This document shows, one piece after another, positions 1 through 56,986 of a stretch of 64,000 nucleotides of DNA. Position 1 is the stretch's first letter. Each line of letters begins with the position of its first letter. The position numbers and the translations under genes were made by a program. This stretch comes from a virus (taxonomy: Duplodnaviria; Caudoviricetes), in IMG/VR virus record IMGVR_UViG_3300037466_002669, positions 174 through 64,173 of that record; one strand, given 5' to 3'. The notes beneath the pieces were generated by a model that had not been told where the DNA came from, did not search any database, and saw only the letters and a list, made by a program, of their open reading frames with translations.

Positions 1-300
1 GATTTTAGTACATCTGATATGGTAGGGTAATGACTCACTCCCAACTTACTTTATACATTTTTACCTGTTCAAAAGGATGAATTACGCTTGTAACCGAATA
101 CCCTAAATCCATTAATTTTTTAACACCTTCAAGATTTATATGGATACCGAATAATAGAACTTCTTCAAATCCTAATTTAGACTGTGATTCAATTCTTTCA
201 ATAGCCTTTTCATAGTTTGCTGATTGAGCTATTTTTGCATCTGATCTTGCTTCAGATGCGTATAAAGTCTTTTTTACTTTTTTATCTTCCATCTGTTTTA
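1..300. repeat. Near-identical block to 51259-~51560 (offset 51,258)
   Basis: gattttagtacatctgatatggtagggtaatg at 1 and 51259; 85-aa ORFs differ at two residues. Confidence 0.95.
35..292 (-). CDS. Hypothetical phage protein (allele A of 51293..51550)
   Basis: 85-aa ORF conserved in both copies. Confidence 0.8.
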   Translation of the reverse strand: MEDKKVKKTLYASEARSDAKIAQSANYEKAIERIESQSKLGFEEVLLFGIHINLEGVKKLMDLGYSVTSVIHPFEQVKMYKVSWE

Positions 301-310
301 TTTTAGTTAT

Positions 311-646
311 TTAAAAATCAAGGTCAAAAATGATAGTTCCTTTTGGTAGAATAACAGCTTCATCTTCGGCGGCTTCCCGGTCGCTTTCGTCTTCTGAATT
401 AGCGTAACTACTTTTTGTTTCCAACCCTTCACCGGACGGATTAATTAAATCATCCTGAATCTCAGAGATAGCGTAAATTCCGCCTGCTTTTTCTTCGCCC
501 CAAACTCTTACAGGTTGTTTTAATTTATCTGGCGTTAGGGTTAAGCAGAAGTTGTAAATGTCTTCCCATATTAAACTTTTTTCATCGCCCTTTTTGTCCA
601 TCCTGTGAGGACGAACAAGCTGTTTTGTCATTTGTAAATCTTCCAT
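311..646 (-). CDS. Hypothetical protein, copy A only
   Basis: 111-aa ORF co-oriented in early operon. Confidence 0.7.
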   Translation of the reverse strand: MEDLQMTKQLVRPHRMDKKGDEKSLIWEDIYNFCLTLTPDKLKQPVRVWGEEKAGGIYAISEIQDDLINPSGEGLETKSSYANSEDESDREAAEDEAVILPKGTIIFDLDF

Positions 647-650
647 TTTT

Positions 651-848
651 TTAAATTTTACTTGTTTTGTTTAAGAAATCTTTCAATGATTTTTGAAACC
701 CTTTTTGACAACAAAAAAGATATTTTTGATTACCGACTTTAATTTCATCGGTTGGCTCCTTATCACATGCTTCAATTTTGCATACCTGTATAAATTTTTG
801 TTTTGAATTTATACCATCCGGTTTCTGTAAAGAATTCTGCTTTGTCAT
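651..848 (-). CDS. Hypothetical Cys-containing protein, copy A only
   Basis: 65-aa ORF, tight spacing. Confidence 0.6.
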   Translation of the reverse strand: MTKQNSLQKPDGINSKQKFIQVCKIEACDKEPTDEIKVGNQKYLFCCQKGFQKSLKDFLNKTSKI

Positions 849-866
849 CTGGTTTTATTTTAATTG

Positions 867-1064
867 TTATTCTTCATCCAAAATAACAACTACAGTGTCC
901 CGCGCCAATGCTTCTTCATCGTCCGGATCTTCTATAAAATTTATCTCATCACTTCTTACTGAATTCACTAATCCATAAGCAAATTCTGTTTTTCTTTCAG
1001 CTACAAATACATCCATGTTATCTGGATATTGAGATAGCTCTTCGCGTAGTTGTTTTACTGTCAT
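867..1064 (-). CDS. Small acidic hypothetical protein (allele of 51873..52067)
   Basis: Near-identical protein in copy B. Confidence 0.8.
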   Translation of the reverse strand: MTVKQLREELSQYPDNMDVFVAERKTEFAYGLVNSVRSDEINFIEDPDDEEALARDTVVVILDEE

Positions 1065-1072
1065 AAGATTTT

Positions 1073-1516
1073 TTATTTTGGTTGTTGATATTGTTCGTAC
1101 TCTTCACGGGTGGATGGAACGCAATTATCGAGGTGCATACTAATTTCTTCTTCATCGTGAGTTCCGGTATTGTCTAAAACAAGTATTAGTGCATAAGGCT
1201 CGTTTTCATTCCCATAATTGTAGCCTTCATCTGGATAATTACCATAAGCAATAGGTTTAAAAACACCGCAGATGCTACATCCACTATTGACTACTTTTAC
1301 ATACTCCGGCAAGTCTTCAATCTTTCTTTCTTCCCACCACTCCAATTTTTTAAAAAGGTGCGGGTATTCTTGCATATAGCCGCTATTACAAAAGCCTTCT
1401 CCTTTTACCAAATATGCTGATGTTCCGATTATAATATTACCCATTTCAAATGCCTGCGAAGGATAATCAGCAATTACTTTGTAGCGCGGTTTCAAAATCT
1501 CTTCTTTACTAAGCAT
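1073..1516 (-). CDS. Hypothetical protein, copy A only
   Basis: 147-aa ORF. Confidence 0.7.
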   Translation of the reverse strand: MLSKEEILKPRYKVIADYPSQAFEMGNIIIGTSAYLVKGEGFCNSGYMQEYPHLFKKLEWWEERKIEDLPEYVKVVNSGCSICGVFKPIAYGNYPDEGYNYGNENEPYALILVLDNTGTHDEEEISMHLDNCVPSTREEYEQYQQPK

Positions 1517-1527
1517 AATTTTTTATT

Positions 1528-1992
1528 TTAGATAAGTTCAAAAATGTAAATCAAATCCTTGTTCCATACTTTCTGTTCTGCTTCTTCCCATTCAAGTAGT
1601 TCTAATGCACCGTTTCGTTGAGAAAATAAAATAGGTGTACCGTCCGGTTTTTCGCCTAATGGATTCTCAAAATAAACTCCGTTGGCTTGTAAATAAGAGA
1701 AGAAAGATTCTTTGGCGGTTTTTACCCATCTATCTATAATAACGCCTTGCCAGTTGTAATTTTGAAAATGCTGATCTTGCATTAATTTTTCTACCCAATT
1801 CTGGAATTGCTCTTCTGTTATATAGGTTAGTTTGCCGACTTCTTTAATATTAAAATCAAATTTTGCCACGACTTTTGAAAATGGTTTAAAGTATGTCAAA
1901 TAATTGCCAAATCTTACTTTTACATTATAAGCACCTTCCGGCATCTCTACTAACAATAATTTCTTTTTAAGATTGAGTATTTGTTGTTTCAT
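1528..1992 (-). CDS. Hypothetical protein, likely start MKQQILN at 1992 (mosaic allele of 52288..52683)
   Basis: Copy B homolog starts at the same MKQQILNLKKKLLLVE and ends EEAEQKVWNKDLIYxFExI. Confidence 0.75.
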   Translation of the reverse strand: MKQQILNLKKKLLLVEMPEGAYNVKVRFGNYLTYFKPFSKVVAKFDFNIKEVGKLTYITEEQFQNWVEKLMQDQHFQNYNWQGVIIDRWVKTAKESFFSYLQANGVYFENPLGEKPDGTPILFSQRNGALELLEWEEAEQKVWNKDLIYIFELI

Positions 1993-2153
1993 TTGGGTTA
2001 AATTATTTTTGAGAAATAATAAGTGATTAATTCTTTTATTGTTAACCATTTATGGCAACCTTTAATGTCATACATCGTAACGCCTCCTCTCACTTCTTTT
2101 TTACAACTTTCTTCAAATTGAGCAAAGCCTGTTATTTGTTGTTTCATTGATTG

Positions 2154-2348
2154 TTATTTTAATAGTTCTAACCTGCTTTTTATTAACGCAGCACCTTCAT
2201 AATTTTCGGTTTGAACCTGATGTTTCATTAGTTTCAATAAATCTTCTTTATTCATCAATACCACAAATTCTATTGGTATAGAAATTTCTTTTTCAGTCGT
2301 TTCCAATAAACCTAAATATTCAGAAATACCTTTATGAAACATTTTCAT
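2154..2348 (-). CDS. Hypothetical protein with UVR-like C-terminal coil motif (ENYEGAALIKSRL)
   Basis: 64-aa ORF; motif resemblance only. Confidence 0.5.
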   Translation of the reverse strand: MKMFHKGISEYLGLLETTEKEISIPIEFVVLMNKEDLLKLMKHQVQTENYEGAALIKSRLELLK

Positions 2349-2358
2349 TTTACTTCAT

Positions 2359-2562
2359 TTATTGGTTTAATAATTCAACTTCATACCACAAGAATCTTAC
2401 GGGTTTCCCGTTTTTCATAAGGCAGTTAATCCACTTTGTTTCTCGTGGGTACTTTCTTCCCTGTTGCACTATTTCAATATTTTTGACTTCAAATATTTGC
2501 CACAGATATAAGCCCAAAGACTGTCTGGTATTCTTATCCATATTTACTATTCTTGCTCTCAA
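2359..2562 (-). CDS. Hypothetical protein
   Basis: 67-aa ORF, overlapping stop/start with neighbour. Confidence 0.6.
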   Translation of the reverse strand: MRARIVNMDKNTRQSLGLYLWQIFEVKNIEIVQQGRKYPRETKWINCLMKNGKPVRFLWYEVELLNQ

Positions 2563-2744
2563 ATTGGTTTAATTTCTACTTCTACTTTAATACATTTCCA
2601 GCCACGTTTTTTAAATTCTTTCCATTCAAAAAATCCTTCGTCCTCAAAACACTTTATCGACCTCTTTTTAGTTTCGGCAAGCGTTGAAAAGTCGTAAAAA
2701 GTCTTTTTAAATTCCTTTACACAGCACCAAAGTTTTTGTTTCAT
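2559..2744 (-). CDS. Hypothetical protein
   Basis: 61-aa ORF, ATGA-type coupling. Confidence 0.6.
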   Translation of the reverse strand: MKQKLWCCVKEFKKTFYDFSTLAETKKRSIKCFEDEGFFEWKEFKKRGWKCIKVEVEIKPI

Positions 2745-3124
2745 ATTTTTTCTTTTAAAGTTTTAGAATCAATAGCAAGACCGGATTCAATTAATCCGAA
2801 AAGATCAAAATGGCGAGAAAGGAGATAACGTACATCCTCAGGAGACCACGTAGTTAATCTAATTATGTAATTCATGTCTGCTCGTTCAACTCCTTTCAAA
2901 TTCCCTCTTTCACTTCTTAAACTTTTCAACTCTTCATCTGTCATATCAGAAAGTTTGCGCAGTTGAATTTGTATATCCTTTATACTCCAGTCGGTAGTTA
3001 TTTTGTTTAAAACATTTGTGGTTAACTGCTCCCAAACAGTCCATGTATTTTCTTCGTAATCATAATACGTGTACCTGACTTTTGCACCTAAATAGAGGTG
3101 GATAAAATCTTTTAATTCTTTCAT
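2741..3124 (-). CDS. Hypothetical phage protein
   Basis: 127-aa ORF, coupled to neighbours. Confidence 0.7.
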   Translation of the reverse strand: MKELKDFIHLYLGAKVRYTYYDYEENTWTVWEQLTTNVLNKITTDWSIKDIQIQLRKLSDMTDEELKSLRSERGNLKGVERADMNYIIRLTTWSPEDVRYLLSRHFDLFGLIESGLAIDSKTLKEKI

Positions 3125-3318
3125 AATTTCTTTTTTACAGTAGTAATAACTATTTGGTTATCCGGTATGTTAAATTGTTTTTGCCAATCAAATACCTGTT
3201 TAGGGAACGGAATTAAACTTTCGCCTACTTCCAATTTTTTCCATTTGAAAAATATTTTTTTCAATAGAGAATATCTGTAGTTATCATTCGTACACTCAAC
3301 TTGTATCTTGTATTTCAT
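3121..3318 (-). CDS. Hypothetical protein (likely start MKYKIQ)
   Basis: ATG at 3318 is more plausible than the TTG at 3363. Confidence 0.55.
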   Translation of the reverse strand: MKYKIQVECTNDNYRYSLLKKIFFKWKKLEVGESLIPFPKQVFDWQKQFNIPDNQIVITTVKKKL

Positions 3319-3350
3319 AATTTCTTTTTTACAGTAAACAAATTTTAGTT

Positions 3351-3505
3351 TTATAAATTCCAAACAGCCTTGTATCTTTTAATAAAATCTGCCGGAAAAT
3401 CAGTTTTAAAACCACAGCGAGGACACACAAATTGTTCGTATTAATGCAATAAGGTGTGTACCCCTCCCTTGTCATTAAATTTTCTCTTACAATTGATGAT
3501 TCCAT
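3351..3505 (-). pseudogene. Frameshifted small CxxC protein gene
   Basis: MESSIVRENLMTREGYTPYC in one frame; EQFVCPRCGFKTDFPADFIKRYKAVWNL* in another, 8 nt later. Confidence 0.5.
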
Positions 3506-3510
3506 AACTT

Positions 3511-3765
3511 TTAATTTTTAAAAATGTATTCTCTTAATTCCGGTTCTATTGATTCATTCATTTTACTTTCTGCGATTAATACTATTTCCCATTCACTATT
3601 TTCCATAGCCCTTTGATACTTATTCTTAAGAGATTCTGTCATCCATTTTATATAAGATTCTCTTACGTGGTAATTACTTTCAAAATCCATAAAATAATCC
3701 TTATTAGGTGGGGTTAAATCCACCGTTACCATAAAAGAACCTCTTATGTATAGTTCAAGTTTCAT
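3511..3765 (-). CDS. Hypothetical protein (truncated allele at 53266..53364)
   Basis: 84-aa ORF; first 32 codons conserved in copy B. Confidence 0.75.
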   Translation of the reverse strand: MKLELYIRGSFMVTVDLTPPNKDYFMDFESNYHVRESYIKWMTESLKNKYQRAMENSEWEIVLIAESKMNESIEPELREYIFKN

Positions 3766-4059
3766 TCAGTATTCGCAGTCATAAAAGTTCAACCTGTTTT
3801 CAAAATCTTGTAATTCTTTCATGCTGTTTGCTACGAAATTTAACATTGCGCCATTCGGCAATAAAACAGCGAACGTCCAGCAATTATAAAAACCGTGAAG
3901 TATCAATTTTATATCAGTGTCTTCGGGTGTATTATTAATTGGATTCCTATTTTCTATTGCTTTTTCAAATAAGACGATTGCCGGTTTTTCTTTTGATTTA
4001 ATCCACCCGTCGGCCAATAATTCAGTTTCCGTTATTTGAGCTTTTTTAATTTTTGCCAT
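3766..4059 (-). CDS. Hypothetical protein, copy A only
   Basis: 97-aa ORF. Confidence 0.7.
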   Translation of the reverse strand: MAKIKKAQITETELLADGWIKSKEKPAIVLFEKAIENRNPINNTPEDTDIKLILHGFYNCWTFAVLLPNGAMLNFVANSMKELQDFENRLNFYDCEY

Positions 4060-4069
4060 TTTTTTTATT

Positions 4070-4348
4070 TTAAGTGTTACTGATAAATTTTAAAGTATGT
4101 AATATCCTTGCCGCCTGTCTTAAAGTTTCGTTAGTAAATCTGATTCCTGTTCCCCGGCATTCCCTGACTAAATCCACCTTCAACTCTTCTGGTAAATCTT
4201 CTATCGGGGTTAAATCTTCTCTCACAAGTAATTCGTAGGTTCTCAGTAGTACTCTTTTAGGAACCGGATTTTCTATAAAAAAATCGAGCATACTTTTATT
4301 CCTGTTGTACATTCCTACAAACTTTGAAGCGAGTTCGAGATCAATCAT
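4070..4348 (-). CDS. Hypothetical protein; C-terminal ~33 aa shared with 53812..54267
   Basis: DLVRECRxTGIRFTNExLRQAARILHTLKFISNT in both copies. Confidence 0.75.
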   Translation of the reverse strand: MIDLELASKFVGMYNRNKSMLDFFIENPVPKRVLLRTYELLVREDLTPIEDLPEELKVDLVRECRGTGIRFTNETLRQAARILHTLKFISNT

Positions 4349-5241
4349 TGTCTTAAATCTTTTCCTTTTACGTCAATAATGTTGAACATTTCTTTCATCC
4401 GGCTTCTTACCCTGAATCCGTACTTTTCCTGAATTTGATCAAAATTGCAATTAGTGGAAATTATCAATCTTGAAAAATCTGTACTGTTCAGATAATAGCT
4501 TTCTAAAAACTCTTTAAACCAATTAATTTTACTTCCGTAATGATTCACGGTTTCTTCGCTACCCACGTCGTCCAGATAGATTACTTTCCCTTTAGCCTGG
4601 AATCCACCGTATTCTCTCACTTCATCTGAAATATCAATCATAGAATAAATTGAGATTGGTTTTATTTTGTTATCCTTTACGCAATTCACCAGGTAGGTTT
4701 TTCCTATTCCCGAAATTCCCCGAATCAGCAAACCTTTTTTAAGTGAAAAGTTTAATTCTGTTTCAAAGCGCGGATCTTCTGAAAGAAAAAAACAAATAGT
4801 TTTTATTAGCGGTTTATTAAACTCATTTTGGATTAATTTTTTGCCATAATTCCGGCTGGCGCAAGACATAACTTTAAAAAAATAACTTGCGTCACATTCT
4901 TTTTTTAGTTGCTCGTAATCGAGTTTTTCTTGCTCTTCCAGCTGTTTTAATTTTTCCTTAATCTCAATGCCAGCGTGTTTATTTTCGTTAGCCACCCTTA
5001 GAATTTCCTCTACATCAATTTCTTTTTCCCAATCAATTGATTTTACTTTTAGTTCAATATTTTCAGCACTTTCTTTTTTATCCCACAGTTTCCAAACGAA
5101 ATGTTTTTTAGCAGTTTCTATGGCGTGGCTTACAGCTTGCTCTTTTTCTTCAGGGGTAAGAATCATTTCTTTTTCTTCAGGGATTATCGAAGTCCATTTC
5201 TTGCCCAACCTTTTGAGGGTGCTTTTTAGTAAGGTTTCCAT
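4345..5241 (-). CDS. DnaC/IstB-like AAA+ ATPase (helicase loader)
   Basis: Walker A GISGIGKT, Walker B IYLDDVG, ISTN sensor; directly downstream of initiator. Confidence 0.85.
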   Translation of the reverse strand: METLLKSTLKRLGKKWTSIIPEEKEMILTPEEKEQAVSHAIETAKKHFVWKLWDKKESAENIELKVKSIDWEKEIDVEEILRVANENKHAGIEIKEKLKQLEEQEKLDYEQLKKECDASYFFKVMSCASRNYGKKLIQNEFNKPLIKTICFFLSEDPRFETELNFSLKKGLLIRGISGIGKTYLVNCVKDNKIKPISIYSMIDISDEVREYGGFQAKGKVIYLDDVGSEETVNHYGSKINWFKEFLESYYLNSTDFSRLIISTNCNFDQIQEKYGFRVRSRMKEMFNIIDVKGKDLRQ

Positions 5242-5968
5242 TTTTTGCTTGTATGATTGATTGAAAATATTTTTCTATTTGGGTTAGTGAGTACCTGGAA
5301 AAATGTTTATCTGAAGCGACGAAAGAAACTAATTCTCCCCATCGGAGTTTGATTGCATACTGTTCGTCCTTGTTAGTAAAAATCGTTTGCTCCTTAAATC
5401 CGAGAATTTTCCCGAAATGAACCGAAATTTTTCTAAGCGATTGAAAATCTTTAATTTGATCTTCTGGATAACCTTCGTTTTTTTCGAGAAACATTTTCGA
5501 CATGGCAGGGATTAAATTTTCGATTCGCGCGCTTTCTTTTTCTTTTTCTTGTTCTTTTTCTTGTTCCATTTCCTTAGCCCCTTGTAAGGGGCTTGTAAGG
5601 GGCTTTAATGAAAAATCCGAATTTATTAAATCATATTTTTTAAGAACAGAAATAACATTTAAGTGCGCCCGGTTTTTTTCTGAAAGTTTCCCATATTGGA
5701 ACAAGATAAAAGAAGGAATAAACCATTTTTTACCGCCGTCAATTTTTACGATTCTAATTTCATCATCATTAAAAAGGGTTAGCGCTCCAGCCTGTGTAAT
5801 AGGCATATCTTTTCCTACATAAGTTTGTGCAATCTCAAAATCTACAATCCATATTCCGGCGTGGTCGCAATCGTGATAAAGGAAATCCCAAAGTAATTTG
5901 TAAGCTCCAGGTAAATTTCTCATAAATGGTTTTTTATACTTATTGGTGTCAGTGAATCTCTTAGGCAT
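5177..5968 (-). CDS. Phage replication initiator (replisome organizer)
   Basis: N-terminal winged-helix-like region, low-complexity EQEKE linker with DNA repeats, upstream of DnaC-like gene. Confidence 0.7.
   Translation of the reverse strand: MPKRFTDTNKYKKPFMRNLPGAYKLLWDFLYHDCDHAGIWIVDFEIAQTYVGKDMPITQAGALTLFNDDEIRIVKIDGGKKWFIPSFILFQYGKLSEKNRAHLNVISVLKKYDLINSDFSLKPLTSPLQGAKEMEQEKEQEKEKESARIENLIPAMSKMFLEKNEGYPEDQIKDFQSLRKISVHFGKILGFKEQTIFTNKDEQYAIKLRWGELVSFVASDKHFSRYSLTQIEKYFQSIIQAKNGNLTKKHPQKVGQEMDFDNP
5533..5606. repeat. Putative origin A: tandem cttgtaagggg repeats/palindrome plus purine-skewed tract inside initiator gene
   Basis: cttgtaagggg at 5581-5591 and 5592-5602; palindrome agcccctt..aaggggct; tttc/ttgttc run 5533-5566. 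Confidence 0.5.
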
Positions 5969-6017
5969 AATTCAGTTTGTTTTAAGTCTTTCATTGGAAT
6001 ATAAAATCAGTTAAAAA

Positions 6018-6443
6018 CTATATCATAGATTTAGCTTTATCCATTAAAGCCAGCATATCCTTCATATTGTTATACTCAATACATACAACAGCCTGTATAC
6101 CTTCATCGTCTATTATGTCAACTGATATAAACACGCTGCCGTCGTTATTTAGGAAAACAGTTTCAACAAGTATCCTATCGTTTGGTCTTAGATATTTCTG
6201 AGACAATATTGGAGCACCTATACTTTTGTGGTATTCAACAACCTTATGGCAATGTTTACAAAGTGTTTTTAATTTATCAACAGGAGCTTCCCAAGGGTCG
6301 CCGGAATATTCTTCGTGATGAACATGTAATTCAGTTTCTTTATCACCGCAAAGGGTACATTTAAAATTATCTCTGTTTAAAATTTCGAGCCGTTTTTTTT
6401 GCCATCTTGGGTCAAGCAGTTTTTCTGCATAGGTTTTTTTCAT
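6018..6443 (-). CDS. HNH endonuclease family protein
   Basis: RD..CxxCG...LHVHH...LCxxCH zinc/HNH pattern. Confidence 0.85.
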   Translation of the reverse strand: MKKTYAEKLLDPRWQKKRLEILNRDNFKCTLCGDKETELHVHHEEYSGDPWEAPVDKLKTLCKHCHKVVEYHKSIGAPILSQKYLRPNDRILVETVFLNNDGSVFISVDIIDDEGIQAVVCIEYNNMKDMLALMDKAKSMI

Positions 6444-6502
6444 TTTTTTTTCAGTTATTATTGGATAAAATCTAATCTCTTAATTCGTGTTACATAAGCG
6501 GG

Positions 6503-6685
6503 TTATTTTAGTGCGCGATCTTTCATTTCCCGGATCAATCTTAAAATTTCATTTGCGGTTTGAACATCTATTTTGTAGTCCACTGCAGAAACTTTTATAA
6601 AGTCTTCCATGAATTCTACATCATTAATAAGCTGCATTAATTTTTGTTCGTTCATTATTTTTATTTTTTTAATAATCCCCTCCAT
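6503..6685 (-). CDS. Hypothetical protein (2 aa differences from 57293..57475)
   Basis: ORF conserved in both copies. Confidence 0.65.
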   Translation of the reverse strand: MEGIIKKIKIMNEQKLMQLINDVEFMEDFIKVSAVDYKIDVQTANEILRLIREMKDRALK

Positions 6686-6905
6686 CGTAATCCATTTTTG
6701 TCTCTATATATTCGGCAGTAGCATCACTATCAACAGATTTATTATCCATGCGTGCCATATATCTATTGTTATTTTCATCTTTTGCATAAACGGTGACACC
6801 TGAGCCAACAAACATGAATAATGTTTTGGGCGCTTTCTTCATTACCCTTTTGAAACTTTTAAGCCAGTCGGTTTCTTCTTTTGTAAATTCTCTATACATT
6901 TTCAA
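6669..6905 (-). CDS. Hypothetical protein
   Basis: 78-aa ORF. Confidence 0.7.
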   Translation of the reverse strand: MKMYREFTKEETDWLKSFKRVMKKAPKTLFMFVGSGVTVYAKDENNNRYMARMDNKSVDSDATAEYIETKMDYDGGDY

Positions 6906-7116
6906 TTAATTTTAATTCTTTTATCGGAACGATTGATGCGTGTTTATTTCCCTTAAATAAAACCTTAGCGTGACTACCGGAAACATATCTTACACTCTTA
7001 ACTTTGCCGGTTATTTCCTGTACAATTCCGGTTTTAGTTATGTAGGTAAAAGACTTTCTATTTAAATGGTGTTTATAAGTCCATTCTACTGTTGCTCCGC
7101 TTTTTAAGTGTATCAT
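6892..7116 (-). CDS. Hypothetical protein
   Basis: 74-aa ORF. Confidence 0.7.
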   Translation of the reverse strand: MIHLKSGATVEWTYKHHLNRKSFTYITKTGIVQEITGKVKSVRYVSGSHAKVLFKGNKHASIVPIKELKLIENV

Positions 7117-7121
7117 GTTCT

Positions 7122-7759
7122 TTAAAATAATTCAGTTTGTAATATTTTTTTCGAGTGAATTCCTTTAAAGCAGTTAAGAATATGTAAGCCGGTTTCAGGA
7201 TGTACACAGTTTCTATAAATCTGATCTTTCCTGGAGTTTATTTTATATTTTGATAAATCAAAACCATATAGCTTACTCCATTCATCTCTTGTTCCTCTAT
7301 TTATGTCAGCTTCTTTTATCTCCGTATTAAAGATTCTAAAGTTGCTCCAAAATAAGTGTCGTCCCATTTCTTTTGTCGGTTTTATTAAAGGTTCATAAAA
7401 TGGATTTACATTTTCCACTACATACCCCCCCCGAAATAATGTTTGAGAAATATAATTTCCTGATACAACTTCATGTCAGGGTATTTCTTTTCTACTTTTC
7501 TATTATTTTTAAAACCCCACATTCTTGCCCTGCTATGGGTTTGACAAGGCGGAGAAGTCCATATAAAATCAAATTCTTCGTAATGGTCTAACAGGTATTG
7601 ATGGGCATCGGCTACAATCACATTATCATCAGGGAAGTAATCTTTATAAACCGCTGCAATGTCTTCCCTGTATTCAACCGCCGTCACTTGTACCTCTTCC
7701 CAAAGTTTCCGGTTTCCTCCGATGCCGGCATACAGGTTTAATACTTTGAATTTTTTCAT
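7122..7759 (-). CDS. C5-cytosine DNA methyltransferase split by a frameshift at a G8 tract (possibly phase variable)
   Basis: Motif I LYAGIGG and motif IV SPPCQ in 7418..7759; motif VI ENV begins 7122..7418; C8 on + strand at 7425-7432 is the junction. Confidence 0.85.
7425..7432 (-). repeat. G8 homopolymer (simple sequence repeat) in methyltransferase
   Basis: catacccccccc gaaata. Confidence 0.95.
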
Positions 7760-7783
7760 TTTTATTCAGTAAACAATTAGTTA

Positions 7784-7999
7784 TTACGCTATTTTTAAAT
7801 ATTCATCCACATTAAAAAATCCTTCTTTCACTGATTCTTTTTTCTTCCGGTTATAAGGGTATTTAGCCAGATTTTCTTCTCTTTTGAACTTCTGTATAAA
7901 GAATCTCGTCGTTCCTAAAATACTGGCCATTTGAGGTTCAGTTAATTTTAAATAGTTGTTGCGGATGAAGTTCTTTTCGTGGTCGGTTAATTGTCTCAT
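7784..7999 (-). CDS. Small HTH-like DNA-binding protein
   Basis: LTEPQMASILGTTRFFIQ helix-turn-helix-like pattern. Confidence 0.55.
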   Translation of the reverse strand: MRQLTDHEKNFIRNNYLKLTEPQMASILGTTRFFIQKFKREENLAKYPYNRKKKESVKEGFFNVDEYLKIA

Positions 8000-8039
8000 A
8001 ATTTTTTTAATTCAGTTATAATTATTATGCTGTGTAATT

Positions 8040-8450
8040 CTATTTACAGACTTTTCTTATAAACTCAATTGGATTTTTGCAGTTAAATTTTTTAGACAAA
8101 CTAAAAATTGCGAAGGCTCTATTTGTTCCGTTGGTCAGATCTAATTCGTTTTCTATAGCTTGAAAAATTCCAAATTGCCTACATTGCTTTAGTGTGATTA
8201 CTCCTGCGTCTAATTGGGATGGGCAAACCTGTCGTAACCAAAAATCAAGAGGGCAATTACTTTTTTCATTATAAGGTGCAATAACTTCATTAAAGTATTT
8301 ATTGACAGGTGCGAAGTCTGTAGTTTCAATTATAAAATAGTTATTTTTATCCCACTCGTAGCCACTTTTAAAAGGTAATGATTTTTTTAAATCAGGGAAG
8401 TGCTTAACAACTTCTTCTGAGCATAGGTAATATTCAATTTCTGTTTTCAT
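8040..8450 (-). CDS. Hypothetical protein
   Basis: 136-aa ORF. Confidence 0.7.
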   Translation of the reverse strand: MKTEIEYYLCSEEVVKHFPDLKKSLPFKSGYEWDKNNYFIIETTDFAPVNKYFNEVIAPYNEKSNCPLDFWLRQVCPSQLDAGVITLKQCRQFGIFQAIENELDLTNGTNRAFAIFSLSKKFNCKNPIEFIRKVCK

Positions 8451-8483
8451 TTTTATATTGGTTTAAATATTTCGTTTTATTTT

Positions 8484-8957
8484 TTAATGCTTCATAAAAC
8501 ACAACCAAATTGTTTTTCCAGATTTCGCAGTTCTATGACCAAACAGCGGTTTATGATTTGTCAGCTGTAATACTTCGCTAACTTTTATTTGCGCCTCGTT
8601 CCATTTAAATATTAAAATTCCAAACGGTTCTAAAACCCGGAAACATTCTGAAAAACCCTGCTCAATATCTTTATGCCAATCAAAAGATAAAACACCGTAC
8701 TTCTTAGCCATCCATGTGTTATGGCCTAATTTTTTCATATGAGGCGGGTCGAAAACAACTACTTTAAATTTATTGTCTTCAAAAGGCATATTCCTAAAAT
8801 CAACTTCTAAATCAGGTTTGATTTCAAGGCTTCTTCCATCACACAAAACGTGGCTTTCTATTCTTTTATCTGTAAATAAAACATCCGGGTTATTTTTATC
8901 AAACCAGAACATTCTACTTCCACAGCAGGCATCAAGAATTAAGGGTACTTCAGGCAT
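8484..8957 (-). CDS. SAM-dependent (amino-type) methyltransferase
   Basis: LDACCGS SAM-binding motif and FDPPH catalytic-type motif. Confidence 0.8.
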   Translation of the reverse strand: MPEVPLILDACCGSRMFWFDKNNPDVLFTDKRIESHVLCDGRSLEIKPDLEVDFRNMPFEDNKFKVVVFDPPHMKKLGHNTWMAKKYGVLSFDWHKDIEQGFSECFRVLEPFGILIFKWNEAQIKVSEVLQLTNHKPLFGHRTAKSGKTIWLCFMKH

Positions 8958-9005
8958 TGGTTATAAATATTTTTTGCTTCAAATTCTTGTTTAAACTTTC
9001 CTCAC

Positions 9006-9362
9006 TTATTTCACTTTCCTTTCAATAAGTTGTAGATCAATTACCATATCTTTTAAATAAAGATCATCGGTATAAAACGCTCTCATGTTTTCAAAACTTT
9101 TATCAACAAATGCGCGTAAATTTTTTATACCGCTTATATAGATTTCGGGTATTGATCTATCTTTAAAAAACTTCCCAAGCCTCGCAGCTTCATCAATTAT
9201 TTCCTGCCTGTTTTTGAAAGGGAACAATGATTCAGTTATTTCCGTTTCTGAGCTCCTCAAATCTTCGTCGCTTATCTCATCAATGACCACTACATCCTGG
9301 TCAACTACAACCACTTCTTTTGGCTGCAAAACGATTTTATTGAGCGTTGATAGCGATAGCAT
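9006..9362 (-). CDS. Hypothetical protein
   Basis: 118-aa ORF. Confidence 0.6.
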   Translation of the reverse strand: MLSLSTLNKIVLQPKEVVVVDQDVVVIDEISDEDLRSSETEITESLFPFKNRQEIIDEAARLGKFFKDRSIPEIYISGIKNLRAFVDKSFENMRAFYTDDLYLKDMVIDLQLIERKVK

Positions 9363-10608
9363 TTTTTAAGTTTTTAATTCCAAAATCTTTTCTGAACCAT
9401 CTTAATGTATAGTCCTGCTTTGCAATCACTCTTTCATATATCTTTTCTTCTATTCCTCTTTCTGAAAAAATCCAATACAGCATACATTCCTCCTCTCTGT
9501 CTTTTGACTGTATGCGTGCTTTTGCCTGTTGGTAGCTTACAGAAGAAAAGTCAATGTTGTACATCACAAGTGCATCGGCTGTGGAAAGGTTAATTCCTTC
9601 TCTGCCGCTTTGAATTTGCGAGCAAAAAACTTTATGTTTTGAATGATTAAACTCCTCTGGTGAAAGTGTGATCTGTTCGCCAAACACTTTTAAGAGCGCT
9701 GTAAACTCCGCTTTGAATTTGTAGAATATAGCAATCTTTTCTCCTGTGAAATAGGTTTTTATAAAGTCTGCTTTATATGTATCAAAAATTATTGAAGCGC
9801 CACTTTCAGCGATAACCGTTCCGGAATAAATTTGATGCAGCTTTTGCATCAACTTCACTTCTGTATCGGCAATTATTTCCTGTCCATCTTTGCCAATATG
9901 CACACGCGTTTTTTTTATTTTATCTGCAAGGGCATAGGTGCTGTTTTTCATCTCAACTTTTAAAACCTGCTCTTTTACAGCCTGCGTAAATCCTGCATCT
10001 TTTTGAGTGTAAGACAGAAACAAGTGCTTTATTTTTTCGTTAATCAAAAATTCGTTTGCGTAGCTGTAATCATTTAACTGGCGGTTAAAAACATATTTTG
10101 TCTTCTTATACACATAGCCAGCATTTGCCCAAGCGTAAAAGTTTTTATGATCAGCAAAAGGAGAGAAAGAGGAAACGTGTAATTGATGAAAAATTTGAGA
10201 AAAAGATTCAGGCGTAGGTGTTCCGGAAAGAAATATCACAGGTAGTCCTTGCGCAATATTTTTTAATAATTTTGTTCTTTCTGCAATCACAGGAAATTGT
10301 CCTAAACAATGCGCTTCGTCACAAATTATCAGATCAAAATTTTCTTCCTGAAAGTTTTGCAGTTGCTCATAGTTAGTAACCACTATTTGAAAAGAAGGTT
10401 TAAAATCCTGGTAGTCATTCTTAATTGATCTGATTGCTTTTTTCTTTGTAAGAAAAATTACTTTTTTTGCGCCATAAAGTTGTGCTGCATGAAAAGAGGT
10501 AATTGTCTTGCCTGTTCTAACCTCCATCGACAGGTAGGCGATCTTATGTTCTTTTAAAAGTACAGCCGCCGAAACGGCTATACTTAATTGGTAGTCTCTT
10601 AGTGTCAT
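9337..10608 (-). CDS. Superfamily 2 (SNF2-like, DEAH) helicase
   Basis: RTGKT, CDEAH, LSGTP, GREGINLS, QAKARI motifs. Confidence 0.9.
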   Translation of the reverse strand: MTLRDYQLSIAVSAAVLLKEHKIAYLSMEVRTGKTITSFHAAQLYGAKKVIFLTKKKAIRSIKNDYQDFKPSFQIVVTNYEQLQNFQEENFDLIICDEAHCLGQFPVIAERTKLLKNIAQGLPVIFLSGTPTPESFSQIFHQLHVSSFSPFADHKNFYAWANAGYVYKKTKYVFNRQLNDYSYANEFLINEKIKHLFLSYTQKDAGFTQAVKEQVLKVEMKNSTYALADKIKKTRVHIGKDGQEIIADTEVKLMQKLHQIYSGTVIAESGASIIFDTYKADFIKTYFTGEKIAIFYKFKAEFTALLKVFGEQITLSPEEFNHSKHKVFCSQIQSGREGINLSTADALVMYNIDFSSVSYQQAKARIQSKDREEECMLYWIFSERGIEEKIYERVIAKQDYTLRWFRKDFGIKNLKNAIAINAQ

Positions 10609-10973
10609 ACTACGGCCTCCTCTTGCTCCTGGTTAAATAAATTCCATTCTTCACTTGTCATTTTTTCGATAATCTTTTGATTGTTATCTTTTCTGATTAT
10701 CGTTTTCTTCCCCTGCTCTGGTTTGTGATATTTAATCTCACACTCAACTTCACGTATTTCATAGCCGCTTGCAACCTTATTTGAGAGAGAATTCAAATCA
10801 GACTGAATAGAATCAAGTCTTGATTTAAACTGACTGCTTACGCTTTTCTTTTCATCGCTTACCGTCTGGAATTGTTGCGTTTTATTTGCCAAGTCCATTG
10901 ACAGGTCATGAATTTCAGGTGCAGTAAAATCATAGCGAAGCCACCTTTTTTCTGAATTGTTTAACACTTCCAT
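10605..10973 (-). CDS. Hypothetical coiled-coil protein
   Basis: 122-aa ORF. Confidence 0.7.
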   Translation of the reverse strand: MEVLNNSEKRWLRYDFTAPEIHDLSMDLANKTQQFQTVSDEKKSVSSQFKSRLDSIQSDLNSLSNKVASGYEIREVECEIKYHKPEQGKKTIIRKDNNQKIIEKMTSEEWNLFNQEQEEAVV

Positions 10974-10992
10974 TTTTATTTTGGTTTAAAGA

Positions 10993-11592
10993 TTAAAAAG
11001 GCATTTCATCTTCTGTTTCTTCGCCGGCCATTGCAGGTTCAGGGGTAGCTGTTTTTGAAAGTTTTGGGAAAATATCGTTTACTACCATTCTTTCAAGAAA
11101 GCTCATTAAATCGCTATCATCCCATTGAAGCTTGCCTTTTACTTTTATTTGCACCATTTGAGGCAAACCATTTGGATTTTCTTTTGTGTAAAAATGCTTC
11201 AAGGCCTTGCCGTCCTGGTTTAAAAAAAGTGTTACTTTCTTTTTGTCGCCTTCAATTTTCATTGATGGAGAAAAGCGCACCCTCTTTGTCAGGTCAACAT
11301 TTGGCAGCGTCTTTAAAAATGCTGAAGCATAGCCGCCGGAATAATTCATTTGGAGAATATACTTCTCTTCTCCATCCTGAATTGACACGTTCCAAAATCT
11401 ACCGAAAGAAGGATGGTCATGCGTTTTGATGTCGGTAATAATACCGCTCACGCCATCATAAATTTCTTCGTGGATCACGTTACCATTTTTCAGCGTCCGT
11501 GATTGTGAAATGTCAGTGGGTTGCTTTACCCGCTTTGTAATTTTGCCGTCACCGATTGATAGGTAAACAGCGTTGTTGTTTTTTTCTAACAT
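10993..11592 (-). CDS. Putative single-stranded DNA-binding protein
   Basis: Beta-rich, acidic tail ending EDEMPF, in recombination/replication cluster. Confidence 0.55.
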   Translation of the reverse strand: MLEKNNNAVYLSIGDGKITKRVKQPTDISQSRTLKNGNVIHEEIYDGVSGIITDIKTHDHPSFGRFWNVSIQDGEEKYILQMNYSGGYASAFLKTLPNVDLTKRVRFSPSMKIEGDKKKVTLFLNQDGKALKHFYTKENPNGLPQMVQIKVKGKLQWDDSDLMSFLERMVVNDIFPKLSKTATPEPAMAGEETEDEMPF

Positions 11593-11598
11593 AAAATT

Positions 11599-12078
11599 TT
11601 AAAATTTAAATTGTGTTGATATATTGTTTCTAATTTGATATACGAGTGTGGAATAAGGAATTCTTGTTTTTATTGAAGCGTCCTTAATTGTATTAAATAT
11701 CTCTCCTGTTATTTTATCAATTATTTTTTTTGATTTGAAGTGCTTGCCCCCAGAGGGAGGTGTTCTTAAACCTGTTATTAATGCGTGTTTTTGATTTTCT
11801 GAAATGGTGCACCATTCCAAATTTTCGACAACATTGTTATGTTTATTACCATCGATATGGTTTATAAAATTCTTGCCGTAAACCTTTGGCAGAAAATGAA
11901 GTGCAACAAGCCTGTGAATTTTAATTGTAGTAATTGTGCCGTTTTTTCGCAGGTTTACGTGCTTATAACCATTTGAACTTTTACCAGGAGATAAAACCTT
12001 GCCTTTATTGTTTTTTACGCTCCCGTCTGGAGATATAAAATACAAGCCCTCAAAACCTTCGATGTCTTTATAAGCCAT
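11599..12078 (-). CDS. NUMOD4/HNH homing endonuclease
   Basis: YKDIEGFEGLYFISPDG N-terminus; IHRLVA...INHIDGNKHNNVVENLEW. Confidence 0.9.
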   Translation of the reverse strand: MAYKDIEGFEGLYFISPDGSVKNNKGKVLSPGKSSNGYKHVNLRKNGTITTIKIHRLVALHFLPKVYGKNFINHIDGNKHNNVVENLEWCTISENQKHALITGLRTPPSGGKHFKSKKIIDKITGEIFNTIKDASIKTRIPYSTLVYQIRNNISTQFKF

Positions 12079-12110
12079 TTTGTTTTTAATTTAATTGTTA
12101 ATGAAAATTA

Positions 12111-51550: not shown

Positions 51551-51556
51551 CTGTTT

Positions 51557-51847: not shown

Positions 51848-51872
51848 TTTATTTATTTTAATTGTGATTAAA

Positions 51873-53811: not shown

Positions 53812-54267
53812 TTAAGTGTTACTGATAAATTTTAAAGTGTGTAATATCCTTGCCGCCTGTCTTAAACTTTCGTTAGTAAATCTTATTCCTGTAGCCCGGC
53901 ATTCTCTGACTAAATCTGTTTTCTCAGATTCCGGTTTCAATTGTTTAAAAATCGATTCCCACCTTAAAGCCTTGCCTGGATTGAGTTGTAGCTTATTGGG
54001 AATCGATTTTATCGTTTTTTCTCCGTTTCTTACTTTTCTCTGAGAAAAAAATATTGAAAAAAAATAGGGGTGGGTGGTAAAATGAAAAAAATCGGTTCCA
54101 TCGGTTACCTTGTTGATTATCAATGAGAAATCGATTCCCAAATCGATTCCCAATCGGTTACTATTTCTATAAATCGATTCCCTAAAACTGTGACTGGGAA
54201 AAAAATTTATCAAGTCACATACCTTTTTACAGAATTTTTTTATCCAGTCACATATATTTCGCTTCAT
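53812..54267 (-). CDS. Chimeric ORF: shared C-terminus with 4070..4348; N-terminal part overlaps iteron array
   Basis: C-terminal homology clear, N-terminal coding status doubtful. Confidence 0.45.
   Translation of the reverse strand: MKRNICDWIKKFCKKVCDLINFFPSHSFRESIYRNSNRLGIDLGIDFSLIINKVTDGTDFFHFTTHPYFFSIFFSQRKVRNGEKTIKSIPNKLQLNPGKALRWESIFKQLKPESEKTDLVRECRATGIRFTNESLRQAARILHTLKFISNT
53949..54252. repeat. Iteron-like array AAATCGATTCCC (putative origin B)
   Basis: Direct copies at 53949, 54128, 54140, 54171; inverted copy at 53998-54010; variants at 54089, 54152; tgtgactgg/ccagtcaca inverted pair. Confidence 0.7.
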
Positions 54268-56774
54268 ATTGCTTCCATTTTTACATAAAGAAGGTTGTTG
54301 TCTTGCTTATTTTTCTTTTCCGTCAACCGGTAACCGAAATTATCGGCACTGATTTTTAATCCTTTTTTAAATCTTTTCATGCTGTAATCCTTTTTATCGA
54401 ACCCACTTACATTTTGAAATTGAGTGAACAGGTCCATAAACTTGTGCTCGGTAGCGCATCCATTTTGAGAATAATCGTCGAACCAGGAAAGAAACTCTTC
54501 CCCGAACATATTTTTTATCTTCTTTTTCTTATAGCTGTCTTTTTGATTTAAATCCTTAATCCCATGTTTTAAATAAAACCTGATGCAGTAAAACATAAAG
54601 TTGTAAAACCGGTTCCATTCATCTTTATCCCAATCGTCAAAAAGCAGGTGGCCATATTCATCTAATGGGGTTCTGTCAGGAGAAAAATAATTTGAAAACT
54701 CAATTAATTTCTGCCGGCGCTTGGCATGGTTGCCATCGTCGTTAACTGTATAGTTCGTAGTAAGGATCACTTTTGGGCTGTCATCATACTTAATATATAA
54801 TTCGTCCTTATTCTTTTTCTCTATTGGCATTCCTTCTGTAATTATGGAATAGAATTTTTTAAAGTCAAAGTTTTGCTCCACATCCTGTATGGCGATTAAC
54901 TTTGTGTCAAGGGAAACTCTTTGGAAGGCGAAAGTTTTGTCCGGTTTAAAATTTTTACCATCCACTGTTTCTACATTGATCATCTTTTCAATGGCTTTAA
55001 TAAAAACCCCCTTCCCGGTCCCACCACCTTTTGATTCATCCTCTGTTTCTTCGCCAAGGATAACAGCGAATGATTTTGCGGGATGCTTATATTTGTGCAG
55101 CAGATAGCCAATAATGGAAATAATATTTTCAAGCCTTTCCTGATCTTCGGCGGCAACCTTGCTCACAAAATCAAGGAACTCACAGCCGTTATCATCTTCA
55201 AGCTGAATATCCACATTGAAATCTATAAGGTCGCTCTTCCAAATAACCTTATTTACCTGCCCATGTTTTAATATTTGAACGTCACTGGCTTTTATTTCTA
55301 CAATACCATTTTTAAAAGGGATATAACACGTATCTTTGGTGTCTCTTAAAAAGTCAATTTGTAAGGAAGGAAGGTATTCATAAAGGCTATCTGCAAAAAT
55401 GTTATTATTCCTGTAAAGCACTTCTAAAAGCTGCTCCTTAGTATATTGTACTCCTTCAAGATTATAATTCTCAATGTATTCCTGGGTAATCTTTTTTATA
55501 CGTTCATTGCTTGCCTCTTCTAATCTGTTGTAGTCATTATGAACTATTTTAAATATAGTTGAGGATGGATCATAAAAATATAATCCAAAGCCTTTGGATT
55601 GAAGAAAAAGTTTGAAGCGTGTGTAAATAATAGAGATTTTTTCTTTGTCTGCATCCCAGCTCCAAAAGCTATCATCGTCTTTTTCTTCGGACCTTAAAAC
55701 AGACTCAATTACCTCTTTTGCTTCAGTAAGTGTAAGGTCATGGGATGCAGAAAGTTTGGCCTGAATCTTTGATTCTTCCATCCCTTCCTCTGTCATCTTT
55801 ATTACGGATTTCCTTACATCGCGCGAAACTTTTTTAAACGGTTCACCAAAACCTTCGGCAAGTAATTTTTTTGCAGCCACCTTATAATCATTGCCACATT
55901 CAAGCATAGCGTATACCGATGCAGGCCTGTAACCTTTGTTTGGCTCAAACTCACTTGAAGTGGTAAAGACACTAAAGAGGCCCATCTTTTTTGAATAATC
56001 GCCACTGCTTTTACTTTTTGTGTCGCCAGGGCGAAGTACCACTGTTTTTTCAGGAGTTTCTTTTACTACGCGCCAGCCGTGTTTCTGTAAGACACTTATT
56101 ATGTCGCCGCGTTCATTATAATCCTGAAAAGGGCTTTTATTAAAAGGCTTATTTTCTATAAAAGAATGATTGTGCACCTCCTCAATAACCGTGTTAAAGC
56201 TGCGGGCCGCGTCCAAAATTAATTGCCGTTCTGCCGGCGTTATTTCGGCAATATCTCTGATTGTACCCTGAAAATATTTATATCCATCTGTCGGCGCTGC
56301 AATCACATAACCTGCCTCTCCACGGGTTTCAATTAATACTTTTACTTTTTCATGCGGATTATCTTCTTTCTCTTTATCGGTGGTAAATCTTTGTGCCAGC
56401 TTCTTGTTACCTTCAACAGTCCCGCACCTGTAAAAAATATGATAACCGGCGGATTTTGTTTTTGATACCACCAGCTTTTTAGCAATCTCAGGATCCGCGT
56501 CAACAATAGCCTGCATAAAATCCTCAAAGAGCGATCCTGTAATATCATATTTACAATCCACATCAATAACCTCCATATTGCCGGAAACCTCACCACAGAT
56601 TGCGGCAATTCCTACAGCTCTATCACTTGCAAACATTTCTGAAATTTCAGTGTCTGTAGCAATGCGTTCCTGGTATTTTTTCCATTGCTGTATAGATCGC
56701 TTATTTACATCCGTAGCAATTACGGACACGCCAAGTTTTTTATATTCAGCAGCAGCCTTTAGTAATTTACTCAT
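54264..56774 (-). CDS. Primase-helicase: N-terminal bifunctional primase/polymerase (Prim-Pol) plus C-terminal P-loop NTPase
   Basis: EVIDVD, TKSAGYHIF, IETRGEAGYVIAAPT; GGTGKG Walker A, IAIQDV, ILTTNY. Confidence 0.9.
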   Translation of the reverse strand: MSKLLKAAAEYKKLGVSVIATDVNKRSIQQWKKYQERIATDTEISEMFASDRAVGIAAICGEVSGNMEVIDVDCKYDITGSLFEDFMQAIVDADPEIAKKLVVSKTKSAGYHIFYRCGTVEGNKKLAQRFTTDKEKEDNPHEKVKVLIETRGEAGYVIAAPTDGYKYFQGTIRDIAEITPAERQLILDAARSFNTVIEEVHNHSFIENKPFNKSPFQDYNERGDIISVLQKHGWRVVKETPEKTVVLRPGDTKSKSSGDYSKKMGLFSVFTTSSEFEPNKGYRPASVYAMLECGNDYKVAAKKLLAEGFGEPFKKVSRDVRKSVIKMTEEGMEESKIQAKLSASHDLTLTEAKEVIESVLRSEEKDDDSFWSWDADKEKISIIYTRFKLFLQSKGFGLYFYDPSSTIFKIVHNDYNRLEEASNERIKKITQEYIENYNLEGVQYTKEQLLEVLYRNNNIFADSLYEYLPSLQIDFLRDTKDTCYIPFKNGIVEIKASDVQILKHGQVNKVIWKSDLIDFNVDIQLEDDNGCEFLDFVSKVAAEDQERLENIISIIGYLLHKYKHPAKSFAVILGEETEDESKGGGTGKGVFIKAIEKMINVETVDGKNFKPDKTFAFQRVSLDTKLIAIQDVEQNFDFKKFYSIITEGMPIEKKNKDELYIKYDDSPKVILTTNYTVNDDGNHAKRRQKLIEFSNYFSPDRTPLDEYGHLLFDDWDKDEWNRFYNFMFYCIRFYLKHGIKDLNQKDSYKKKKIKNMFGEEFLSWFDDYSQNGCATEHKFMDLFTQFQNVSGFDKKDYSMKRFKKGLKISADNFGYRLTEKKNKQDNNLLYVKMEAI

Positions 56775-56986
56775 AGTTCGCTAAATTCTTTTTCCAATTG
56801 TTTAACAACTTTTGCCAACTCTTTTTTGACGGCTGTAAAGGCTTTTTCTTTCATATTCTCTTTATATGGAGAACTAAGGTTTTCAAGAAAAGAGAGGTTC
56901 CCCTCATCAGTTTTGGCAAGTACAGCTTGTAACTCTAAAATTTCTTTGCGAAGGCTTTGCGCGCGGTAAAAATTTTCAATTTGCAT
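56771..56986 (-). CDS. Hypothetical coiled-coil protein, copy B only
   Basis: 71-aa ORF. Confidence 0.6.
   Translation of the reverse strand: MQIENFYRAQSLRKEILELQAVLAKTDEGNLSFLENLSSPYKENMKEKAFTAVKKELAKVVKQLEKEFSEL

Follow-up and report, generated by a model that had tools for sequence, protein, structure and literature searches.

Unrelated replication genes in one early-operon slot at the two ends of an uncultured phage contig, and a candidate origin inside a putative initiator gene

The DNA analysed here is a stretch of 64,000 nucleotides (the window) that makes up nearly all of one 64,173-bp virus record of IMG/VR, IMGVR_UViG_3300037466_002669, which is classed as linear. Its two ends carry overlapping versions of one early-gene region, in which a single slot is filled by two different sets of replication genes: cassette A (4175-6446), with an HNH endonuclease, a putative initiator of 263 amino acids (aa) and a DnaC-like helicase loader, and cassette B (53917-57237), with a VRR-NUC nuclease, a 71-aa open reading frame (ORF) and an 836-aa primase-helicase next to a repeat-rich non-coding region. 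The two cassettes are unrelated in sequence and are bounded by sharp junctions; that the slot holds two different replication strategies had already been proposed by a first-pass annotation of this DNA, made from the sequence alone. The best overall explanation, which we consider fairly probable, is that two co-occurring phage genotypes carry non-homologous replication modules in one slot of the early operon, downstream of a superfamily 2 helicase gene that both have, and that these were exchanged by a mosaic swap.

The slot, its flanks and its two occupants

To the right of the slot the two copies are practically one sequence (Table 1), with a total of seven differences, all located at 6454-6625, within 180 bp of the junction, and with 6585 bp (6626-13210 versus 57416-64000) that are identical base for base. 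Identity sets in shortly before the start codon of the first gene in either cassette. The left junction lies inside a gene, the 92-aa gene of A, of which positions 4070-4174 are shared with B at 94.7% identity; the shared left stretch is 113 bp long. Farther left, about 24% of the 4.2 kb of A aligns with B, in islands of 81-100% identity that sum to about 1 kb, the sets of ORFs are unlike (14 small genes in A versus seven in B), and the 173 bases of the record that precede the window are 84% identical to B. The differences between the copies reach well beyond the replicon, and the left flank is mosaic. The earlier statement that both cassettes sit between the same flanks therefore holds on the right side and, on the left, for the short linker alone; likewise, of the shared neighbours that had been named, the superfamily 2 (SF2) helicase and two exonucleases are present, and a single-stranded DNA-binding protein (SSB) was not found by any profile among the ORFs of the flank.

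The content of cassette B is as it had been described, with Pfam matches above the curated cut-offs and five exact repeats. The 836-aa protein matches PF09250 (E 6e-10, 40.3 bits, cut-off 22.8) and the DUF5906 P-loop family PF19263 (E 3e-8, 34.6 bits, cut-off 27.6), as well as PHROG 19930 (E 6e-70), and has a DxD motif at ‘VIDVD’ and the P-loop motif GGGTGKG. It is not a member of the P4 alpha family proper, since its match to TIGR01613 (E 1e-7, 30.7 bits) is below the cut-off of 108.7. A sequence relative in the PDB was not found, and tblastn against GenBank phages gave only distant matches, in Cellulophaga, Polaribacter and Arthrobacter phages. The 71-aa ORF is conserved at 64% aa identity in two related loci (L004 and L005).

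The non-coding region downstream of the primase-helicase gene contains five exact copies, one of them inverted, of the 11-mer AATCGATTCCC within 233 bp (53950-54182) and none elsewhere in the 64 kb; in a control, one of 100 shuffles reached five matches anywhere in the window. The repeat cluster is confined to a short region beside a replication gene and is accompanied by an A/T-rich stretch, the arrangement looked for in iteron-type origins, and the whole repeat-rich region is likely to be the origin of variant B. Its core (54011-54154) is kept at about 75% identity in L004 (7939-8037) and L005 (7914-8058), where it is inverted relative to the flanking genes and where other repeats are found at the same spot. 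Two further candidates were dropped: a family-wide iteron word, because the 11-mer is not conserved in L004-L018, and a 151-aa ORF over the repeat region as a gene, because conservation at the protein level is confined to its last ~34 codons and the remainder matches the opposite strand of relatives, with stops.

In cassette A, the loader gene product matches PHROG 3277 (E 1e-9) and NCBIfam PRK06835 (E 5e-11), the latter with 42 bits against a cut-off of 215 and thus below it, and has no match to the IstB or DnaC families of Pfam. Its AlphaFold2 (AF2) model (predicted local distance difference test score, pLDDT, 84.7) retrieves with Foldseek, at ranks 1-12, DnaC (3ecc/3ec2, E 1e-6), DnaI (2qgz/5he8/5he9/2w58), IstB (8q3w/5bq5) and DnaA (2hcb). 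At least 420 homologues exist, several of them named DnaC by the Joint Genome Institute, and the Walker A (GISGIGKT), Walker B (YLDDVG) and arginine (RVRSR) motifs are invariant across 43 of the loader homologues. The protein is best regarded as a distant relative of the DnaC/DnaI/IstB loaders, not as a member by the curated threshold. The HNH endonuclease, which has no Pfam match at E 0.01, occupies the position that VRR-NUC has in B. In 6 of 45 IMG/VR loci a homologue of it lies immediately upstream of the initiator-family gene, and the other A-type contig (L083) lacks it, so that it is a frequent, optional companion of that gene.

Table 1. Positions in the window of the cassette genes, their candidate origins and the surrounding features
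Feature	Position	Strand	Remarks
92-aa gene	4070..4348	-	last 34 codons (4070-4174) = left recombination linker common to B
DnaC/DnaI/IstB-like AAA+ helicase loader, 298 aa	4345..5241	-	assigned by profiles and fold
Putative initiator / replisome organiser, 263 aa	5177..5968	-	gene overlaps the DnaC-like gene
A/T- and purine-rich tract, candidate unwinding element	5533..5574	-	adjoins the sites; encodes EMEQEKEQEKEKE
Candidate in-gene origin sites, three 9-mers	5575..5605	-	5597-5605, 5586-5594, 5575-5583; 11-bp spacing
HNH endonuclease, 141 aa	6018..6443	-	PHROG 119, E 2e-13, and ten other HNH PHROGs
Shared right flank	6447-13210 = 57238-64000	-	99.9% identity over 6764 bp
Small ORFs and DNA methyltransferase	shared right flank, 6447-13210	-	
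SF2 helicase (ResIII/SNF2/Helicase_C)	9337-10608	-	in shared right flank
DnaQ-like exonuclease	12111-12692	-	in shared right flank
PD-(D/E)XK exonuclease, start only	right end of shared flank (to 13210)	-	
Tyrosine integrase	18452-19615		
Left linker in B	53812..53916	-	3' end (34 codons) of a 92-aa-type gene; 5' part replaced
Origin-like non-coding region of B	53946..54260	.	repeats, ATCGGTTMC variants, A/T run, inverted pair 54189-54252
Primase-helicase, 836 aa	54264..56774	-	N-terminal Prim-Pol, C-terminal P-loop NTPase
71-aa ORF	56771..56986	-	no family match (Pfam, PHROGs, NCBIfam)
VRR-NUC nuclease, 80 aa	56993..57235	-	PF08774, E 5e-10, 40 bits versus cut-off 23.8; PHROG 93

The putative initiator and a candidate origin within its gene

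The third protein of cassette A had been called an initiator. PHROG matches agree with the first-pass annotation for the HNH endonuclease and, together with Foldseek matches, for the DnaC-like protein, as profile searches do for the Prim-Pol/P-loop protein of B; the 263-aa protein drew no direct profile match. More than 1351 homologues are available, none of them with an assigned family. According to the AF2 model (pLDDT 79.5), the protein is composed of an N-domain of helices and a small sheet (residues 7-122), a disordered linker (125-149) and a helical C-domain (150-246). A role as initiator is suggested indirectly, by gene pairing, by the C-domains of relatives and by a DNA element where the gene encodes the linker.

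A DnaC-like gene is located directly downstream in 10 of 48 initiator-family loci (nine by tblastn among L084-L131, plus L083, which is on the same contig as L087), namely in L083/L087, L086 and L127 and, with more distant relatives, in L088, L090, L101, L112, L120 and L121. Most relatives have only the N-domain and the linker in common with the 263-aa protein, at 60-75% identity, and their C-domains differ. Among the relatives with the same N-domain, L102 and L111 carry PF09524 (E 2e-22 and 3e-21), and L102 and L094 match PHROG 428 (E 1.5e-23) and PHROG 270 (E 7e-16), respectively, both described as ‘replication initiation protein’; a weaker match is to a DnaD-like helicase loader PHROG. For the 263-aa protein itself, a domain-wise Pfam search at E 10 gave nothing usable and Foldseek against the PDB gave nothing. 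A wide structural aligner found weak fold matches, of the C-domain to the DnaD domain 2i5u (Z 5.2) and of the N-domain to the winged helices of Cdc6/ORC (Z 4.5-4.8), and the nearest clusters in the protein Atlas are those of PF09524 and PF07261 (DnaB_2), at 0.95. The literature that was searched contains no description of this family or of its in-gene sites.

The linker is encoded in part by three 9-mers, which read AAGCCCCTT-AC-AAGCCCCTT-AC-AAGGGGCTA on the coding strand (5605-5575) and specify the peptide KPLTSPLQGAK. In 46 distinct homologous genes, taken from IMG/VR, from metagenomes and from genomes of Bacteroidota, the codons of this motif were found to be nearly fixed (Ser AGC in 39/39, Pro CCC in 35/36, Ala GCT in 33/33, Lys AAG in 42/43 and Leu CTT in 38/41), whereas at conserved residues of the N-domain with 4- to 6-fold degenerate codons, used as a within-gene control, the top codon reaches frequencies of only 0.30-0.84. 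In addition, the second residue of the motif switches between Pro (CCC) and Gly (GGG), whose codons are reverse complements, and the DNA word AAGSSSCTT is kept. Because the codons are frozen relative to the control and the Pro/Gly switch preserves the DNA word, selection on this motif, as read from codon usage, is on the nucleic acid and not on the peptide. The sites are followed by a purine-rich A/T tract, which codes for EKEQEKEKE in the window gene and for (KD)n in relatives. Since sites one helical turn apart, an A/T-rich neighbour and a position in the linker are also the layout of ori-lambda and SPP1 oriL, the 9-mers and the tract together suggest, by analogy, a candidate lambda-O-like origin inside the gene.

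A wider proposition, to which we give even weight for and against, is that the >1300 proteins form a large unannotated initiator family of Bacteroidota phages, whose origin (three 9-bp sites that are nearly palindromic and spaced by one helical turn, together with an A/T-rich unwinding tract coded as (KD)n) would be located in the linker-coding part of the gene. The N-domain and origin would then be shuffled as a unit and joined to C-domains of at least three types, which would select different loaders. A replacement like that of Pro by Gly would follow from the requirements of the DNA site (CCC to GGG), not from those of the protein.

Several other features of the family were observed. A second patch of raised synonymous-codon conservation is present at 5900-5923 (codons 16-23; Ile ATA 0.91, Gly GGC 0.84, Ala GCT 0.83 and Tyr TAT 0.84 in the 46 genes) and might be another DNA- or RNA-level element. 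Two homologues, P0061 and P0110, carry an HNH domain (PF01844/PF14279; about 105 residues) as an in-frame insertion that separates the N- and C-domains, at the linker position of the phased 9-mers, where the site peptide is degraded (APSNNLEGAM). Furthermore, a Paraflavitalea pollutisoli prophage (L084:5535-5969) encodes a stand-alone 144-aa protein with the DnaA C-terminal DNA-binding domain PF08299 directly upstream of its initiator-family gene.

Contig architecture, distribution and competing explanations

Comparison of the window with itself shows that 1-13210 recurs at 51259-64000, with a period of ~50.79 kb; the contig thus spans ~1.26 lengths of a unit of ~50.8 kb. Early genes are on the minus strand (50.1-64 kb plus 1-17 kb), and the terminase, portal and structural genes are on the plus strand. 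With its tyrosine integrase, the unit looks like a temperate tailed phage of the siphovirus type. Its host probably belongs to the phylum Bacteroidota, as supported by the presence of the initiator family in genomes of Paraflavitalea and Aquimarina and in metagenome-assembled genomes (MAGs) of Flavobacteriales/Bacteroidales. No tRNA genes were found in the window, and megablast of 1-13210 against 50,697 GenBank phages gave no match. The annotated parts of neither variant show a polymerase, and both presumably use that of the host. Two other observations concern the shared flank. A C5 cytosine methyltransferase is seemingly split into two ORFs within 7122-7759 (= 57912-58549), identically in both copies, with 7418-7759 matching the N-terminal part of PF00145 and 7122-7418 without a match; and a further HNH endonuclease (11599-12078; PHROG 59, E 6e-42), unrelated to that of cassette A, is located between a 199-aa gene and the DnaQ-like exonuclease gene.

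The contig is most likely an assembler path through two co-occurring genotypes, leading through A, a collapsed common backbone, B and part of the backbone again, because contigs of other samples carry the cassettes separately and because the 6585-bp repeat is base-perfect. One of these contigs (L132, 1021 bp, from sample 3300037467) matches 5195-4175 at 99.9% identity and ends exactly at the left junction. The other (L133, 4605 bp, from sister sample 3300037418) agrees with 57542-52949 at 100% identity and begins exactly 127 nt past the last difference between A and B, which points to a branch edge or bubble of a de Bruijn graph with k=127 and to the presence of a second variant. We discarded the idea of a long, diverged terminal repeat of a single genome, as 6.4 kb are mosaic here; both terminal repeats of a phage derive from the same template and would be expected to agree exactly. 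At the other end of L133 (L133:4567-4605, compared with window 2124-2161 and 52949-52976), this contig follows B down to 52949, including a 28-bp word common to A and B, and its last 10 bases are as in A, a hint of a third mosaic with its crossover in the 28-bp linker. A related record, IMGVR_UViG_3300037466_002354 (56,788 bp), has the helicase region at both ends (L005 and L010) in copies that are 90-95% identical, and to all appearance it is also a chain of two variants and not a true terminal repeat.

The distribution of the two cassettes was determined in 79 loci of IMG/VR that carry an SF2 helicase homologue. VRR-NUC is present in 73 and the primase-helicase in 67 of them, both in 66 and at least one in 74; the five loci without either B gene are mostly cut by contig ends. 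A-type genes were found in none of the 79. Because of these 74 loci, and because the two closest relatives (93% helicase identity) are both B-type, the helicase, VRR-NUC and primase-helicase make up the standard set of this phage group, with A as the exception. The A core, consisting of the 263-aa, DnaC-like and 92-aa genes, is found in contig 3300038393_002038 (L083) with 88% nucleotide identity over 1.95 kb (89% aa identity for the 92-aa gene, which is kept with the cassette). In that contig the HNH gene is missing, and the core has as neighbours a different helicase (SNF2-methylase, 905 aa) and an Erf recombinase. An exact search of IMG/VR for both right-junction sequences returned no contigs. 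A search of relatives for both cassettes at this locus, as the first-pass annotation had advised, thus recovered B widely and A only as a core in one other backbone. Its proposal that the replicon behaves as an exchangeable cassette is supported by these distributions and by the finding that each cassette carries its own origin-like DNA.

Two other explanations of the contig have to be weighed. It could be one physical molecule in which two sister phages are joined with their cassettes head-to-tail, either as a tandem hetero-dilysogen or as a heteroconcatemer that was packaged or was replicating; the phage carries an integrase, the order early (A)-integrase-late-early (B) is what a tandem double lysogen or concatemer would give, and 3300037466_002354 likewise has diverged copies of its helicase region at both ends. 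We consider this improbable, as there is no host DNA at either contig end, the ends fall at arbitrary points within the early region, the repeated 6585 bp are base-identical as expected for one graph node walked twice, and the B segment of the sister sample is an isolated edge that ends k=127 nt into shared sequence, as in a bubble of a short-read de Bruijn graph. A somewhat stronger contender, still on the doubtful side, is that segment A comes from a substantially different phage, which has no more in common with phage B than a 6.6-kb block exchanged recently, so that the replicon is one difference among many. The left side fits this idea, with its ~24% of aligned sequence, its 14 versus seven ORFs and a contig start in diverged sequence (84% identity), as do the quite different backbones of A-type cassettes exemplified by L083 and the A-like end of L133 after the 28-bp linker, with its hint of a third mosaic. 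A single assembler path through 38 kb of backbone speaks against it, as does the identity over 6585 bp, from which it follows that this block, at least, had a common ancestor very recently.

The remaining alternative concerns the 263-aa protein, which might be a DNA-binding regulator or anti-repressor-like protein. The frozen linker element, which may be an operator or RNA element rather than an origin, would then serve as such or as a nuclease target, and A would replicate otherwise, for example by a recombination-dependent route that uses the shared helicase and exonucleases. This possibility draws on the missing direct family match, on an N-domain that resembles generic winged helices, and on HNH genes that repeatedly adjoin the 263-aa gene, with an HNH domain inserted in the linker of some relatives. 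It seems unlikely in view of the overlap with a DnaC-like loader gene here and such pairing in 10 of 48 loci, of the matches of the relatives' C-domains to replication-initiation PHROGs and PF09524, and of three sites one helical turn apart beside an A/T-rich tract, which is the layout of the lambda ori; moreover, a nuclease target would exploit sequence conservation, not cause it.

The preferred reading, two genotypes with swapped modules of which A has its own initiator and origin, also has observations that weigh against it. The backbone from 13211 to 51082 occurs once in the window and only the overlapping ends can be compared, so that any near-identity of the genotypes can be judged only within the overlap, and the otherwise near-identical phages of the first-pass annotation are not visible in this one contig. 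The 263-aa protein has no match in Pfam, PHROGs, NCBIfam or the sequences of the PDB, either as a single sequence or as a profile, and its fold matches at Z ~5 are within the noise for helical domains. In L084 and L085, which share its C-domain, the downstream gene is not recognisably DnaC-like. The 11-mer of B is not kept in the nearest relatives (L004-L018), and the 3' relic of the 92-aa gene in B-type genomes could reflect an exchange that ran the other way at an earlier time.

Proposed mechanism and comparison with known systems

In the proposed model, which is built by analogy with lambda O/P, SPP1 G38P and phage 80alpha ORF20/21, replication of variant A would be initiated by binding of the 263-aa protein to the three phased 9-bp sites in its own gene. 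The DNA would then open at the adjoining A/T-rich tract, and the loader, through predicted contacts with the initiator and with host DnaB, would bring this helicase to the open DNA, followed by recruitment of DnaG. Variant B would carry out its own primer synthesis and unwinding with the primase-helicase, probably starting at the repeat region downstream of that gene. The domain content makes it reasonable to contrast, as had been done, an initiator plus loader that depend on the host with a primase-helicase that the phage supplies itself. Short linkers that are conserved bound the exchange, as they do elsewhere in this mosaic region, and recombination within them would have produced the swap: one is the terminal (3') part of the 92-aa gene, the other the intergenic DNA preceding the nuclease gene. 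The core of A may have been imported from another phage lineage into a B-type backbone, a direction suggested by the distribution only. B-type genomes still contain the 3' end of a 92-aa gene of the A type, which makes it probable that the contents of the slot were replaced at least twice. The first-pass annotation had further suggested that different replicons let the two phages coexist by avoiding origin incompatibility. Incompatibility is a property of plasmid-like maintenance, and for a temperate phage with an integrase this idea is unnecessary.

The module swap is a new example of known phage mosaicism, not a new kind. It adds an uncultured, probably Bacteroidota case to the rule that replication modules are exchangeable and bounded by short linkers, and it is a clean case, in that both states have a base-identical flank. 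That the contig is most likely a chain of two variants and not one genome bears on calls of genome length and completeness. The part most worth following up is, in our view, the testable prediction of an origin plus initiator for a large unannotated family, from which replicons and origin annotations might be obtained for a phylum with few characterised phages.

Replication-module exchange among related phages has long been established, according to the accounts of Weigel and Seitz (2006) given in PMC5499656 and PMC4889955, and the ‘initiator-helicase loader’ type of module is taken from the same work as presented in PMC5499656. In two known examples the origin lies within the initiator gene, namely ori-lambda in gene O, where the sites follow each other at one helical turn beside an A/T-rich tract, and oriL in gene 38 of SPP1 (PMC5499656). 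Lambda O/P and 80alpha ORF20/21 recruit host DnaB and then DnaG, and ORF20 plus ORF21 suffice for autonomous replication of 80alpha (PMC5499656). Like lambda O/P, SPP1 G38P and 80alpha ORF20/ORF21, cassette A has a two-domain putative initiator followed by an overlapping loader gene, has repeated words resembling binding sites and an A/T-rich tract in the linker-coding part, and has no phage replicative helicase or primase, implying the use of host DnaB and DnaG. The 263-aa protein has no detectable sequence relationship with lambda O, G38P or DnaD. Further differences are that its gene contains three 9-mers at 11-bp spacing in place of four ~19-bp iterons, and that the accompanying loader is DnaC/DnaI-like, as in 80alpha, and not P-like.

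Cassette B resembles the fused primase-helicases (P4 alpha, N15 RepA-like, and Prim-Pol with D5/SF3-type proteins; surveyed in PMC4889955) in combining Prim-Pol and P-loop domains in one 836-aa chain that adjoins a repeat-rich candidate origin. It differs from them in matching the P4-family C-terminal model TIGR01613 only weakly, in that its protein belongs to a conserved triad with the SF2 helicase and VRR-NUC, and in that the origin repeats are not kept in near relatives, in which the origin core is inverted. As in the mosaicism of lambdoid, dairy and staphylococcal phages, non-homologous modules occupy one syntenic slot between short conserved linkers in related genomes. Unlike in those cases, the phages concerned are uncultured and probably infect Bacteroidota, and both states co-occur in the samples with a flank that is identical base for base.

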